64,000 nucleotides of DNA, taken from Massalongia carnosa (taxonomy: Eukaryota). The notes below the pieces were generated by a model. It was not told where the DNA came from and did no database searches. It saw nothing but the letters and a program-made list of their open reading frames with translations. This document shows positions 37,321 through 44,333 of the stretch, piece after piece. Where the stretch lies: assembly GCA_965645245.1 (NCBI GenBank), contig OZ287078.1, positions 682,001 through 746,000 of the forward strand. Reading direction: 5' to 3'. A program made the translations under genes and the position numbers. Every line of letters starts with the position of its first letter. Within the stretch, counting starts at the first letter, position 1.

Positions 37321-38800
37321 CGGAGGATGACACAAAAAGTCTTTGGATGCGCTAAGAATGGCACTAAGGATTTAGCGCTGCATCAATGCCCCTTTTCCAT
37401 ATTTGATTTATCATCTTTATTTTTCACATCAACCTCATTTTCAAACGATATAATGCATTGAAAATCAGGTCTATATGCAGACTTATGACATGATTAGTCT
37501 ACATCACTGCTATCAGATATAATGTCTTTGCGATAGCGAATGCGACGATCTTCGGAATTATATGGCCGGACCACACCATTGTCTCGACCCTCTCGATACT
37601 CGTTTCCTCCATTCAAAGCGATGACTTCTTCTATATGTCGTGGAATTCGTTCTATCCATTGCTGAATTTTTTTTTGTTTCAGAGTTTTTGTCCAGCACCG
37701 AGTCCATGCTTTGATAGCCGTAATGCGATTTCGAGGTGCTCCTTTTCGTGTGGTTTGCCTTTTCATCCAAGGCCAACATTGCTCGATCATGTTCAAATCA
37801 GGAGAATTACCTGGCCACAATAAACGCAAGACTTCTGCATCCATAAAGACCAGGTCTTGATGTTTGGAAGCATGACCAGGGGCCTTGTCCTCCTGCACAA
37901 TAGTATCGGGACGATCTTTTATACATTCTTTTGCAAACGGAAGAAGTTTGGGAAGAAGAATAGTTTTTTGATAACGATACCAGTCGCTGCCCCCTTTGCC
38001 TTTTCGAGCCACTTTTCCATGCTTTTCATCCCATTTCCAGACCGGTTTTCGACCTCCTTCGGTACGCAGTCCCATTCGTTTCATGCCTATTTCCAATTCC
38101 CAATTTTCTTTCGCTAGAGGCTCCAATGCCTTATTGATTTGTCGATTTCTCCTTGAGCGGCATGTTTTTCTGCCGCTGTCTCCGGCTTCCATATATGAAA
38201 AGGACCTTTCTTTTCATACGAAAAACAACCCCAAAACATGAATTCGGAACATCCTTTCCATCTACGTCGAATGCACGTTTGAGCATATCTTTCTTTTGGA
38301 GTTCGCCACTAGAGTCTTCGTCCTCTTCGAGAGCCTAATACAACACTAGTTTCATCGCTCCATATGACATTCTTCCAGTCATCGAGAGTCCAATGACGAT
38401 AACGCAAACAGAATTGCAATCGAGCCTCTTTCATTGCTGAATCAAGGCCTGGTTTCATGGTAGATTTGCAGGGACGAAAGTTATTGCGTCGAAGAATATT
38501 GAGAATAGTTGTAGATGAGACTCCGTGCTCATATCCCAAAACGGCTGAGGATTTTTCTCTATCATTTCGATCATGACGAACGTTGTCTAAAATGGCCTGT
38601 TCTAGCTCAGACGTCACTTTAGGAGGACGTCCTGAACGACATGCATCTTCTACGTATTCTACATTCAATATTCGCGAAACAGTGGGATCATATCTTCGAT
38701 CTCGTGCCTTGCGCTTGATATAACTGATAGACTGAGTTGAGACTCCGGTGACTGCTTGAACGACTTTGACTGCTATGCCCCAACTGACAGACACAAGGAT
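37321..38800 (-). mobile_element. Tc1-like (DD34E) DNA transposon, 5'-truncated, with pseudogenized transposase
   Basis: SGRPPK, WKNVIWSDET, VQEDKAPGH, WPGNSPDLNMIEQCW (34 aa between D and E); in-frame TAG at 38309-38311 and a 1-nt frameshift near 38140; putative terminus TA|CGGAGGATGACACAAAAAG at 37321; matching TIR not found. Confidence 0.85.
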
Positions 38801-38806
38801 TAGCTA

Positions 38807-40185
38807 CAGGGGGGGAGGGGGGGGGGGCGGAAGAAGCGGGAAGATAGAAAGTGGGGAAAAGATACTTTATTTTGTTAGCAATTTGCGTACAATTTTATGT
38901 ATCTCCTACTCTACTAGCTAGGTGTTTATCCAAGCTCTCGTCGCATCACCAAATATCGTTTGACTCGCCGGTCTTTTCGATGATGACATGGACGTATCAG
39001 ATAAAGAGATCTCTTCTTGTAGTAGTCTATCCTCCATCTCACAAAGATCCGTCTCATTGATGTCGATGCTAGCAAACTGAAGCTTGCTTTTGAAATCTGT
39101 TGGCCGATTAAGAGTACGCTCATTCATGTAAATAAACATGAGTTTATCGACATTGATGGAATGTAGAGAGTTCCGACTTTTGGTCATGATCAAATTCATG
39201 ACCGACCAATTTCTTTCTGCCAGCACCGAATTAGCAGGCAGCATTATTACCTTTCTAGCTATGTTGCTGAGATCAAAAGCAAAGCTTCTGGAAAAGTTCC
39301 AAAACAGCTCCGAATCCGTTTGATATGTCCAGCATTCGGAGGCAGGATAAAAACCGTCTTCTTGATTTCGAAAAGAAAGCCATTGCTTCATTGCCGACTT
39401 TGCTTCTTCAACGTTCAGATATTCAGCAAAGAATCTATGCATGATAGAGAAAAATGCCTGCGACGTGGATACTCCAATCACCTGAATGTTATGATTCTGA
39501 GGAACCAACAGAGCTGCTACCACATGAAGTTCAGTTATTTGACTGAGATATCGATCTTCCCAAACTATCTCTGCAATGTGATGCAAATCCATCTCAGAAT
39601 CTTCATCCTCTTTGGCCATTGTATATAGGTGAGATCGAAGCCTGTTCCAATTGGCAGTCACCGCGTACAGTTTATGCCCCTCGGCCTCGGACATGTATTG
39701 TGCTTTATGTATGGGATCAAGAATTTTCTGTACGATGGCCAGCTTTTTCCAAAACGAGAAGTCGTTGACGAATGTTCCTAAAGGATGACTTCTGCCCTGA
39801 TCAATGCCCGGAGCATTTTGCTGAAAATAATCCAAAATTGCCTGCTTGCTTTTTAGCACCGAGTTCAAAAGGCCTACAGTCGTACCCCATCTGGTCAAAA
39901 CGTTGAGAATCAGTGATTGACGTTGATTGTATGCCTTTGAAAGTTATAAATTAGCAATGAAGTTTTGATGCCGCATTGAAATTTCATTCCTACTTACCTT
40001 CATCTGAAAATTCCATAGAATGGCCAATTCTTTATTCGATCCACGAAAAGCTACCACTATCGACTGAGCTTTTTGCATGATGTCTGCAAAAAAAGGAAGC
40101 TTCAAAATGTCTCCCAAAAGAAGCTGTAAACCGTGACTGTCGAAAAAGACGTGTCTCATCTCAGGAAACTTTCGAATTTCAGACC
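38807..40185 (-). mobile_element. hAT-superfamily transposon fragment (3' half of transposase, intron 39935-39997)
   Basis: HVFF-DSHGLQLLLGDIL; FQMK|AYNQRQSLILNVLTRWGTT; C-terminal dimerization-like MLPANSVLAERNWSVMNLIMTKSRNSL..DKLMFIYMN; stop 38918; G-rich CAGGGG.. putative terminus at 38807. Confidence 0.85.
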
Positions 40186-40946: not shown

Positions 40947-42200
40947 TTACAGTAGCTTTTTCTGCAGCGATTTCGTCTCCTGTCCGTACTGCCTGTCGTC
41001 GTCGCCCTCCACCGCCTTCAGGACGGTTTCCATTTCCCGGCACTGCCGCTCCCACTCCGCCTTGCTCATCTTGCTTTCGCGCCGGAAGAGCTCTTCATTG
41101 GGTCGGCGGTAGGAGCCCCCAAGGCGGTCCCATAGCGTGGTGAATTGGCCGTAGTTGTAATTGAAATAAAGGTGATGCATTGTGTGGCACGCGGCACCGT
41201 TGATTATGGGGGAGTTGGCGACATATTCGCCATCGTCTAGTCGAAGAATTAAGGTTATGGTTGATTGTAGGAGGGCGAAGGGAAGGATAGGGGAAGGGGT
41301 AGTTGGGGGGTGTGATATGGAGCAGAGGAAAGAGAGACATACGAATGAAGACGGTCCATATATTGATGAAGATGAAGAGGACGATGTACGCAAACTTCTG
41401 GAGCGGAAAGATGTAGGGAAAGACGTGATAGGGCACGCTCTGAGCGAACCCGTCTAGTGGATGAAAGGCGTGGCTAGCGTAAGGTGTGGGCATGATCCAC
41501 TTGTGATGGGGTTTATGGAGTGTCTTGTAGATCTTCGGGTGGTGCAGGCCCCGGTGAATCCAGTAAATGAAGAAGTCGGTAAAAGCGATGAAAAAGGGGA
41601 ATTGTAAAAAACTATAGAGCGCAAACGGAGCGTCCGCGGGGATATCGTAGAGTTTGGCGTAGCCACGCACTTCGCCGAGAAAGAGGGGTGCGGTGAAGAT
41701 GGCCATGATGGGCAGGGCGATCATGGTTTGGCGGATCTCCAGAGAGACTTGGTTTTTAAGATATTTCGGGTGCGTGAAGGTCGCGTGGTCGAAGATGAAG
41801 ACATAGGAGAGGGAAGCGCAGATAAAATATATCACAAGGCCAAACAGCCTGACGAAGGAGAGTTAGCAACGAAGATAGCGACGCCCATATATCAATTGTC
41901 CTCCATCCGCTTAGAAAAGGAGGTAATTGGGAGGTTTCACCATGCTATTAGGTATAGACTTAAGCCCTGCCTCCAAGGACTATCGCGCGGCCAAACGCTC
42001 ATGAAAGCGTACCGAGTAGGCTCCAACTGGAAGAACTGATTGGAGGCGGGCAAGGTGGCAAATATCTTGTGTCCTGTCGAGAGAGTGAAGGTATCGTTCT
42101 GGACGGCATTGCCGCTGTGACCAATTGACGATACTGGAAGGACGGCGGCATATAAGCGATCAAAAATGAATGTATCGAACACTTCGAGGATGATGTCCAT
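40947..42200 (-). CDS. ERG3: C-5 sterol desaturase, 3 exons
   Basis: MDIILEVFDT..; His boxes IHRGLHH, LHKPHHKW, HTMHH; ASHAFHPLDG; FNYNYGQFTTLWDRLGGSYR. Confidence 0.96.
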
Positions 42201-42433
42201 GTTTGGGAGAAGATTGATGAGCGAAAGTTCGCAAACGAGAAGGGAAAAGAAAACACCGCCGTCTTACTCTATATCGTTCACCTTTCTATTCTTCCTCATC
42301 TGACAGTAAGCTCTAAATTCTAGTCACACCCGAACAGGCTTAGCTCAGCATCCCGATGCGTGCTAATTGTGCTTTACCTCAGTACCTCAGACATGTCTAA
42401 GCCCCTCAGGGTTAGCCTATTTTGTTAAGCTCC

Positions 42434-43760
42434 CACGCGGGTGACAAAATAAATTGCAACGTGTAAGCGAATTTACCCCTGAATGCCCCATCAAAACACC
42501 CTCCTTTTTTTCAACTTTTTATCTCATCATCAATGTCTCGACCCAAAAAGCCTCATTATGATACTCCCACAAAGGCCAAAGTTCAAGGAGCTTATCAATT
42601 TCTCATCTCACATGCAATTCCATTCGATCCACGGGCCATTTTTCAGGAATTTGGCGTGGCCGAGCGCGCGGGCTATAACATCATCAAAAGCGGAGCTTCT
42701 TCTCGCACACGTCACAATTCTTCTCTCGTTGAGACTCGGGGTCGAAAGCGAAATATTAGTGATGATCAGCTGAAGGAGGCAGATCAAATTCTACAGGATC
42801 AAGAGCTACAATTGGAAGGAAAACGCTACACATGGGATGCTTTAGCACAGGAGATTGGGGCCGACGTGATGGGACGTACAATGAAGAGAACTCTTACAGC
42901 TGCCTTGAATTATCACAAATGTCTAGCCTGTGTCAAAGGGTGGCTGGCAATGGCATCAGAAGAAAGAAGAGAAGAATTTGCTACAGTTATGTTAAATAAA
43001 TATCCTCGGTTCGAAGACTGGCATCGCGTACGATTCAGCGATGAGATTCATTTTGGCTACGGGCCTGAAGGACAGTTACGAATCATTCGTAAGCCCGGAA
43101 CAAGATATCGTTGGGATTGTATTCAGCATCGTGATGCACCACCTGAGAAAGATCGTAAAAGAAAGCACTGCTGGGCAGCAGTTGGTTACAATTTCAAGTC
43201 GGATATCTACTTCTACGATGTGCCCAGCAATAGCAATGGAAAAATGACTCATCAGGTGTATATTGACGCTATTCTTGATCCCGTTGTCAAGCCCTGGTTG
43301 GAGCGTGGAGATGACTTCGTACTTGAAGAAGATGGAGACTCTGGTCATGGCACGGGCAAGACACGAAACGCGGTCAAAAAGTGGAAGTTAGATCACGATT
43401 TAGAGCACTATTTCAATTGTGCTTCATCTCCTGATCTAGCCTCCATTGAAAATTGCTGGCAGCCCGCAAAGCAGCATGTTCGTAAATTTCCTCATTGGGA
43501 CGATGCAAGTTTGGAGCAGCTGATTAGGGAGGGATGGGCTCGAGTCAGTCAGGAATTTATCAATGAAAGGGTGTTATCCATGCCCAAAAGATTGAAAGAG
43601 GTAAAAGATGCAAAGGGGGCGATGACTGGTTATTGATCTCATGTAATTTATATGAATTTTATTAGCTATGCAGATGATGGTTGATGATGAGATGAAAATT
43701 TGAATAAAAAAGGGGGGGTAAATTCGCTTACACGTTGCAATTTATTTTGTCACCCGCGTG
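42434..43760 (+). mobile_element. Intact IS630-Tc1-mariner-type DNA transposon, 1327 bp, perfect 46-bp TIRs, non-TA flanking direct repeat
   Basis: TIR cacgcgggtgacaaaataaattgcaacgtgtaagcgaatttacccc at 42434-42479 and inverted at 43715-43760; GCTCC at 42429-42433 and 43761-43765. Confidence 0.93.
42533..43636 (+). CDS. Tc1-like DDE transposase, 367 aa, uninterrupted
   Basis: RGRKR; VRFSDEIHF; LEEDGDSGH; SSPDLASIENCW (38 aa between second D and E by manual count). Confidence 0.92.
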   Translation: MSRPKKPHYDTPTKAKVQGAYQFLISHAIPFDPRAIFQEFGVAERAGYNIIKSGASSRTRHNSSLVETRGRKRNISDDQLKEADQILQDQELQLEGKRYTWDALAQEIGADVMGRTMKRTLTAALNYHKCLACVKGWLAMASEERREEFATVMLNKYPRFEDWHRVRFSDEIHFGYGPEGQLRIIRKPGTRYRWDCIQHRDAPPEKDRKRKHCWAAVGYNFKSDIYFYDVPSNSNGKMTHQVYIDAILDPVVKPWLERGDDFVLEEDGDSGHGTGKTRNAVKKWKLDHDLEHYFNCASSPDLASIENCWQPAKQHVRKFPHWDDASLEQLIREGWARVSQEFINERVLSMPKRLKEVKDAKGAMTGY

Positions 43761-44333
43761 GCTCCTTCTGATTAGCGTCCCAGCTGACTAACGATAGCAC
43801 AAAAGCCCGCATAGTCAGCCTTAGCCGGCACGTCCGAGGTACTGAGACAAATTATGCTAAACCACTTTGGGAAGGAACCGGCATGCTGGTGGACTCAACG
43901 TCCTTCGTTCAACTTCCCCTATGAACATGCAGAGTACAGCTCTCAATGCTCTCGAAGCTCTAGATGTTCGCTTCACCTGCCAGGAGGTCAAAACTCAGTA
44001 GATCCATGATAGTGATAATTTTGATTACCTAATAACCTTTTAAATAGCTACTCGTATCAAGAACTAACCATAACTCAATCCTGTCTACATTTGTTGTACC
44101 ATAGAGCTGGTGGAAATATTGATATGGTATACAGTAAAGACTGGCTGTCGTGAAGTCTGATGTGCGCACGCTAAACAGGCGTAAAACCAAGTGACCACCC
44201 TTCACCCACCTGTTATCCAGTCGGGGGTTTTTTCTCTAAACCATAAACACCCCTTTCCCACGTACCCGGCCTGTGAATACCTGAACAGCATCCTGGCCGA
44301 CTGATATCGAAGAGATTTGCACGCCAATGACTG

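Follow-up and report, generated by a model that had tools for sequence, protein, structure and literature searches.

A Tc1-type transposon in a Massalongia carnosa contig and many of its relatives lie between five-base-pair duplications rather than TA

The 64,000 nucleotides (nt) of Massalongia carnosa contig OZ287078.1 that were analysed here (the window, to which all coordinates refer) contain an element of 1327 base pairs (bp) with a single open frame at 42434-43760. The element is very probably an autonomous, likely still active cut-and-paste transposon of the Tc1 branch that belongs to an ascomycete present in lichen samples and inserts with a 5-bp stagger without TA. Three lines of evidence carry this reading: the Tc1/mariner fold of its transposase, the 5-bp duplications found around its relatives, and a site in another sample from which the element is absent. 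A wider proposal stands at about even chances, namely that a large, widespread and hitherto undescribed clade of ascomycete Tc1-type elements has abandoned the TA rule in favour of a 5-bp stagger into W-N-SSNSS-N-W targets (W, A or T; S, G or C; N, any base), in convergence with Transib and RAG, and that the window holds an intact and recently mobile member of it. The parts of the element, including its target-site duplications (TSDs) and terminal inverted repeats (TIRs), are these:

42429..42433, no strand: left TSD, GCTCC, 5 bp, with one copy at the empty site in run X1 (joint from 42428 to 43761, 5 letters common to both sides)
42434..42479, plus strand: left TIR, 46 bp, first letters CACGCGGGTGACAAAATAA, 100% complementary to the right arm
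42505..42533, plus strand: left subterminal inverted repeat, 29 nt, 90%, its end coinciding with the start codon
42533..43636, plus strand: transposase gene, 367 amino acids (aa), the only open frame
43040-43042, 43331-43333 and 43448-43450, plus strand: codons of the catalytic residues D170, D267 and E306, respectively
43681..43709, minus strand: right subterminal inverted repeat, partner of 42505..42533
43715..43760, minus strand: right TIR, 46 bp, from the repeat finder
43761..43765, no strand: right TSD, GCTCC, read from the sequence, single at the X1 empty site

At its left junction the sequence reads gttaaGCTCC followed by CACGCGGG, and at its right junction CCCGCGTG followed by GCTCCttctg, with TA at neither side; the stretch 42429-43765 opens, inward of the left GCTCC, with CACGCGGGTGACAAAATAAATTGC. 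The repeat finder returned arms at 42433-42479 and 43715-43761 that are 100% complementary over 47 nt, or over 46 nt when counted from CACGCGG. A 28-nt word from the inverted ends is present in the window solely at the two arms (0 expected, 100 shuffles), and BLAST found no second copy of the element within the 64 kb. The original prediction, made for this stretch before the present analysis, had described perfect 46-bp TIRs, an uninterrupted 367-aa DDE transposase and ends that lack TA. The complementary arms, the frame at 42533-43636 with its Pfam DDE_3 domain and the GCTCC at each junction bear this out, and its description of the element was right in every particular that it gave.

The protein is a Tc1-type transposase of ordinary build, in which a helical DNA-binding region at the N-terminus precedes a DDE domain of the RNase-H-like type at the C-terminus. 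Pfam identified DDE_3 (E 2.6e-09, which passes the curated cut-off) and, at E <= 0.1, no further domain in the 367 aa, helix-turn-helix (HTH) domains included. The one convincing phmmer match among solved structures was the catalytic domain of Sleeping Beauty (5cr4, E 2e-10); the alignment spans residues 255-367, places the second catalytic D at D267 and the catalytic E at E306, and reveals a 4-residue insertion behind a conserved H relative to 5cr4. The motif SPDL..IEN surrounds the catalytic E. In an alignment of 35 family members D170, D267 and E306 are invariant or nearly so, and R69 and G70 are nearly invariant within a GRPR-like motif, TRGRK, at residues 67-71. An AlphaFold model made from this alignment (mean pLDDT 77.8, pTM 0.58) has 5cr4_A as its top Foldseek match (E 3.7e-10, TM by target 0.75, 27% identity). 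Chains of full-length Mos1 rank next, over about 375 columns and at a high rmsd of 13 A, then the SETMAR transposase domain, with retroviral integrases as distant later matches.

Measured against the features by which the Tc1/mariner superfamily is recognised, the element has a DDE_3/Tc1-type catalytic domain with an intact triad, and it has short TIRs (46 bp) and one transposase gene in a total length that falls within 1-2 kb. It also possesses the N-terminal bipartite HTH region with a GRPR-like motif between its halves: the model has helices predicted over residues 11-125, PF01498 occurs in many relatives (for example P0008 and P0009, at 55-56% identity to the window protein), and TRGRK is in place. 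The feature that it lacks is insertion at TA with duplication of TA, since GCTCC stands at both ends in the window and TA on both sides is absent from the family, as described below.

The family is large. A word-indexed search gave 299 relatives at E <= 0.001 among 1646 candidates, and an exhaustive search of cluster representatives gave 3306 at E <= 0.001, 958 at 1e-10 and 230 at 1e-30; one cluster of 97%-identical proteins has 43 members. The named matches come from several ascomycete orders and, at 46-50% identity, include Pleosporales, Helotiales, Orbiliales and Pseudogymnoascus. The runs that contain the window stretch include one lichen metagenome and four organisms. We fetched 80 metagenome loci coding for relatives at 35-63% identity (591 pattern matches, 113 confirmed) and, at each locus, aligned the DNA upstream of the frame to the reverse complement of the downstream DNA. 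Arms scoring at least 45 were found at 36 loci, the window counted. The outer ends in the family open with C followed by A or T, the next two bases being mostly CG or AG (CACGCGG, CAAGCGG, CTCGCGG), and an A-rich word resembling GACAAAAWAA or ACAAAAWAA lies a few bases inside these CACG, CAAG or CTCG termini.

The length of the duplication was read from these loci. Elements were anchored at the first C of the terminus with their flanks unseen, and three duplicate loci were dropped, which left 31 insertions; 28 of them (27 metagenome loci and the window) were bordered on each side by 12 nt of flank or more. An exact 5-mer direct repeat was present at 16 of the 28. No insertion had an exact repeat of 4, 6, 7 or 8 (0/28 for each length), one had an exact repeat of 3, and five had an exact repeat of 2, four of these lying within 5-mer repeats. 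TA was found on both sides of none of the 28. When left flanks were paired with the right flanks of other loci as a control, the 5-mers matched in 6 of 756 pairs. Three loci were re-anchored by hand, two having been missed by the motif rule and one mis-anchored: L015 then gave GTACG (5 bp), L027 gave CCCAGGT (7 bp) and L016 had no repeat. In the final tally of 30 distinct insertions, with the window included, 17 have a 5-bp duplication, one has 7 bp, 12 have none and TA is found at none.

The 5-bp trait is a property of the whole fungal family and not of the window copy alone. The elements L002 and L005 have near-identical ends (one mismatch in the first 20 nt) and different repeats (ACCCC vs CCTGC), which is the look of a duplication made at each insertion. 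In a quick tree of 42 rows with SH-aLRT support, from which duplicates and matches shorter than 280 aa were dropped, 5-bp elements are scattered across most of the branches, including two of the unresolved basal branches, L044 and L045; the outgroup, a frameshifted Tc1 neighbour in the window, sits on a very long branch and the root is unsure. The original prediction, a Tc1-like lineage whose stagger has changed and whose target is not TA, is supported by these counts, by the Tc1/mariner fold and by the empty site in X1. Two loci, L014 and L022, were considered as TA-type insertions and rejected: in the tree both have a 5-bp element as their sister, and the TA aligns with bases 1-2 of the family terminus.

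The empty site emerged when four runs were compared over 41933-44261 using Logan contigs at least 90% alike. In X1, a lichen metagenome, a contig of 2257 nt follows the unique left flank, 41933-42428, apart from a single mismatch, and resumes at 43761 for 27 letters. At the joint 1332 bases are missing and 5 letters are common to the two sides, with a depth (25.1) that equals that of the flank; further X1 contigs extend the right flank. This joint is the orthologous site without the element and it carries a single GCTCC, the form that the original prediction had expected of an empty allele. The filled junction was seen in X4, where a contig of 2201 nt runs from 41933 into the end of the element, to 42460, with zero mismatches. 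An empty joint of the same type is present in X5, at a depth far above that of the flank, and X4 has a joint with 3-4 shared letters. Variant copies of the flank run straight across the site as loose ends in 7 contigs of X4 and 4 of X1. Given these empty joints and straight-through variants, the element inserted into a short repeat of which many copies are empty. The two halves of this host repeat are:

42373..42428, no strand: left half, with an inverted-repeat arm at 42373-42395; depth rises here and element-free variants are present in the runs
43766..43851, no strand: right half, with an inverted-repeat arm at 43829-43851

Minus the element, the host repeat is about 150 bp long (42373-42433 plus 43761-43851) and has inverted arms of 23 nt (83%). 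It is multi-copy in X4, X5 and X1, with variants that lack the element; no other copy was found in the window. It may be a miniature inverted-repeat transposable element of another family. Among the best-supported loose ends listed, the flanks of other copies of the transposon came to one left flank, from a diverged copy in X6, and the right end there is unlike that of the window from 43707.

A location within a short multi-copy repeat could suggest that the flanking GCTCC pair arose by chance or comes from the host repeat itself, a 5-mer match being expected by chance about once in 1000. This is scarcely credible, however: the orthologous empty site in X1 and the host-repeat variants in X4, X5 and X1 carry GCTCC once, and sixteen further insertions of relatives have 5-bp repeats of other sequence.

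The original prediction had allowed for either a 5-bp TSD, GCTCC, with 46-bp ends or a 3-bp TSD, CTC, with 47-bp ends that begin CCACGCGG. A 3-bp duplication would be of the kind made by Tc4/Tc5-type or CACTA-type elements. The window copy by itself is undecided between the two because GCTCC starts with G and ends with C, and its arms are complementary across 47 nt. The relatives argue against the shorter duplication. Their conserved terminus begins at the C of CACG, CAAG or CTCG. Complementarity of the bases just beyond it was seen at 8 of 28 insertions, and at 4 of 16 when only those with a repeat are counted. Chance alone would give one in four, so an extra terminal base is not a general feature of the ends. 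Moreover, 12 of the 16 repeats cannot be reduced to 3 bp by lengthening the ends. The 5-bp duplication with 46-bp ends is the part of the prediction that stands, and the 3-bp version is very improbable.

Several points nevertheless weigh against a 5-bp stagger in the window element or its uniformity in the family. The empty site cannot by itself distinguish a 5-bp duplication and 46-bp ends from a 3-bp duplication and 47-bp ends, since 1332 bases are skipped under either reading and it agrees with both to the same degree. For the exact window element only one copy was readable with both flanks, so its 5-bp reading rests on relatives at 35-63% identity. The metagenome loci were drawn from few sample series. 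Of the 30 insertions, twelve lack a duplication and one, L027, has 7 bp. Insertions with a 5-bp repeat are missing from four well-supported clades, and L027 falls in one of these.

Such data could mean that the stagger is not fixed, with duplications ranging from 5 to 7 or 8 bp, or often absent, and 5 bp merely the commonest outcome. The exact 7-bp CCCAGGT of L027, the GAAGGC that lies on both sides of L026 with a 2-nt offset at the left, and the clustering of the 12 insertions without repeats in four clades all fit that description. In the clades that include the window, by contrast, all repeats are exactly 5 bp (17 cases, with none of 4, 6 or 8), and the 5-mers beside the ends of the insertions without repeats are somewhat GC-richer than the flank farther out (0.60 vs 0.50), as if their flanks came from different 5-bp events. 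We regard a variable stagger as unlikely. For most insertions without a repeat we infer that the flanks come from different copies, united either in assembly across a 1.3-kb repeat or through recombination, or that the duplication has decayed; L060, one of the twelve, is probably a false arm pair around a truncated copy. In some clades the stagger may differ or be less strict.

Two of these loci have details of their own. L027 (667-2024 in that locus) is about 43% identical, has the ends CAAGGCCTGG and has clade-mates, L031 and L035, without a repeat. At L026 (1341-2712) the flanks read GAAGGCgt before the left end and GAAGGCaa after the right end; one candidate reading is an 8-bp duplication in which two bases have changed.

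The 5-bp targets have a shared character. At duplication positions 1, 2, 4 and 5, G or C was found in 54 of 64 cases (16 sites); the second base before the duplication is A or T at 15 of the 16 sites and the second base after it is A or T at 13. CCACC or its complement GGTGG accounts for four of the 16. The resulting pattern, W-N-SSNSS-N-W, is symmetric around the central base of the 5-mer in this small sample of 16 sites, and the window site, aa GCTCC tt, matches it. Symmetry of this kind is expected of a two-fold complex that cuts 5 bp apart.

The spacing of the catalytic residues is a separate matter. In the window transposase 38 residues lie between D and E (34 + 4 by the 5cr4 alignment, with which a direct count agrees), as had been predicted. 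Among the 12 elements with frames of at least 300 aa the spacing is 37 in eight, 38 in the window and 39, 41 and 43 in one each; one of the eight with 37 has N in place of the second D. Repeats of 5 bp occur at spacings of 37, 38, 39, 41 and 43. The DD38E label that had been attached to the non-TA target therefore holds as a count, but with a range of 37-43 in the family it is no mark of a lineage and has no link to the change of target. The window transposase shares its 38-residue spacing with Intruder (DD38E), which is described as an animal family (PMC7731502) and stands among the TA-duplicating families in a second source (PMC8533490). Membership of Intruder would call for a constant spacing of 38, but the spacing varies among the 12 intact frames considered here, and a value of 38 is no evidence of kinship with that animal family. 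The 38 of the window transposase is a one-residue variant in a loop that is variable within a fungal family whose usual spacing is 37.

Tc1/mariner and other DDE transposases pair the ends of the element, excise it and use its 3' hydroxyls to attack both strands of the target, the distance between the two attacks setting the length of the duplication after repair. By analogy with Tc1 and Sleeping Beauty, the window transposase would bind the 46-bp inverted ends, excise the element and join its 3' ends to the target. The two joining events would be staggered by 5 bp rather than 2, with no requirement for TA, which would set the family apart from every described member of the group. Once the gaps are repaired, 5 duplicated bp of GC-rich and variable sequence would remain, GCTCC in the window copy. 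The likeliest seats of the change may be the variable loop behind the second D, which in this family is 3-9 residues longer than in Sleeping Beauty, and a conserved clamp-like stretch at aa 177-212, which is poorly modelled.

In its DDE_3 domain, single frame, length of about 1.3 kb, short ends starting from CA and GRPR-like motif the element resembles the Tc1 family and impala, and the 37-residue spacing of most of its relatives is also that of impala. It differs from the Tc1 family in that it and its relatives duplicate 5 bp of variable, GC-rich sequence and not the 2-bp TA, which impala reportedly duplicates. Three-base-pair duplications that retain T and A are made in the same group by Tc4 and Tc5 (TNA) and by the ciliate element TBE1 (ANT); the 5-bp duplication of the window family, in contrast, is without any fixed base. 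According to one source the whole IS630-Tc1-mariner group recognises and duplicates TA, with Sailor extending this to TATA (PMC8533490); a second counts the TA target among the features that its members have in common and assigns impala to a DD37E group (PMC7325037); and a 2026 review describes Tc1/mariner integration at TA (PMC13728883). The window ends, CACGCGG..ACAAAAWAA, are loosely similar to the mimp/impala pattern CAGTRRG..GCAAWAA (PMC5579170).

The other system that invites comparison is Transib, described as the only eukaryotic superfamily with 5-bp duplications; its targets are GC-rich, and its ends combine a CAC.. heptamer with an A-rich nonamer (PMC1131882). According to another source, fungi lack Transib (PMC5751038). 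Like Transib and RAG1-type systems, the window family has 5-bp duplications at GC-rich targets (54/64 G/C), CAC-type ends and an ACAAAAA-like word. Its A-rich word lies 3-4 nt past the terminus, unlike the 12 or 23 in Transib, and its transposase is not RAG1-core-like, DDE_3 alone having been found and the fold being that of Tc1/mariner. Given the Tc1 protein, the resemblance is most likely convergence. The ends of the window element and of L001-L078 recall the heptamer-nonamer signals of Transib and of V(D)J recombination.

No printed report of a fungal Tc1-like element with a 5-bp duplication was present in the literature searched, although curated repeat libraries such as Repbase and Dfam, which the search did not cover, may hold such entries. 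Two sources take duplication of TA to define the whole IS630-Tc1-mariner group (PMC8533490, PMC7325037), and it is built into tools that classify transposons. Annotation by duplication length or by the shape of the ends would mis-sort elements like the one described here, for example as Transib. If the 5-bp reading is true, the distance between strand transfers can change within the Tc1 fold, and the family would be a natural experiment on DDE stagger and offer a handle on what sets it. A compact one-gene element of this kind might reach GC-rich sites that Sleeping Beauty, Mos1 and impala avoid, and its use as a TA-independent insertion tool is plausible.

The element is multi-copy in related organisms. 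Its summed contig depth compared with that of the flanks is about 1e5 vs about 830 in X4 and about 130 vs about 6 in X5; depth is not copy number, but values of this size show that there are many copies. In X4, 473 of the 809 contigs on the stretch are at least 99% alike. Insertion is polymorphic, with the element present in one sample and absent in another. Taken with the open frame, the perfect ends and the multi-copy depth, this polymorphism suggests that the element is probably active in the present day. At seven or more sites (42754, 42787, 42793, 42805, 43011, 43651 and 43663) nearly all other copies in X4 and X5 differ from the letter in the window, so the window copy is not the master copy. 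The changes at the seven sites are a mixture of transitions and transversions, and repeat-induced mutation of the C-to-T kind is not evident. Internal joints were found in X4 (42609 to 42806, 42804 to 43635, 43280 to 43635 and 43394 to 43635) and in X1 (42603 to 43013); they lie within 42603-43635, skip 196 to 830 internal bases and suggest internally deleted, non-autonomous derivatives in related genomes.

The surroundings of the insertion include a second, degenerate Tc1-like element on the minus strand at about 37494-38794, in which an open reading frame (ORF) with DDE_3 (37494-38192) and one with HTH_Tnp_Tc3_2 (38309-38794) are in differing frames. It has 34 residues from D to E (VQEDKAPGH...SPDLNMIEQCW), and the original prediction of a neighbouring Tc1 with this spacing was correct. 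No convincing inverted ends were found for this remnant (best arm score 25). Adjoining it on the minus strand, at 38918-39898, is a 326-aa ORF whose product has a hAT C-terminal dimerisation domain (E 3.5e-07), in a region full of transposon debris. A minus-strand ORF at 41095-41835 carries a fatty acid hydroxylase domain (E 1.2e-13); it lies about 600 bp from the insertion, with the element on its start side.

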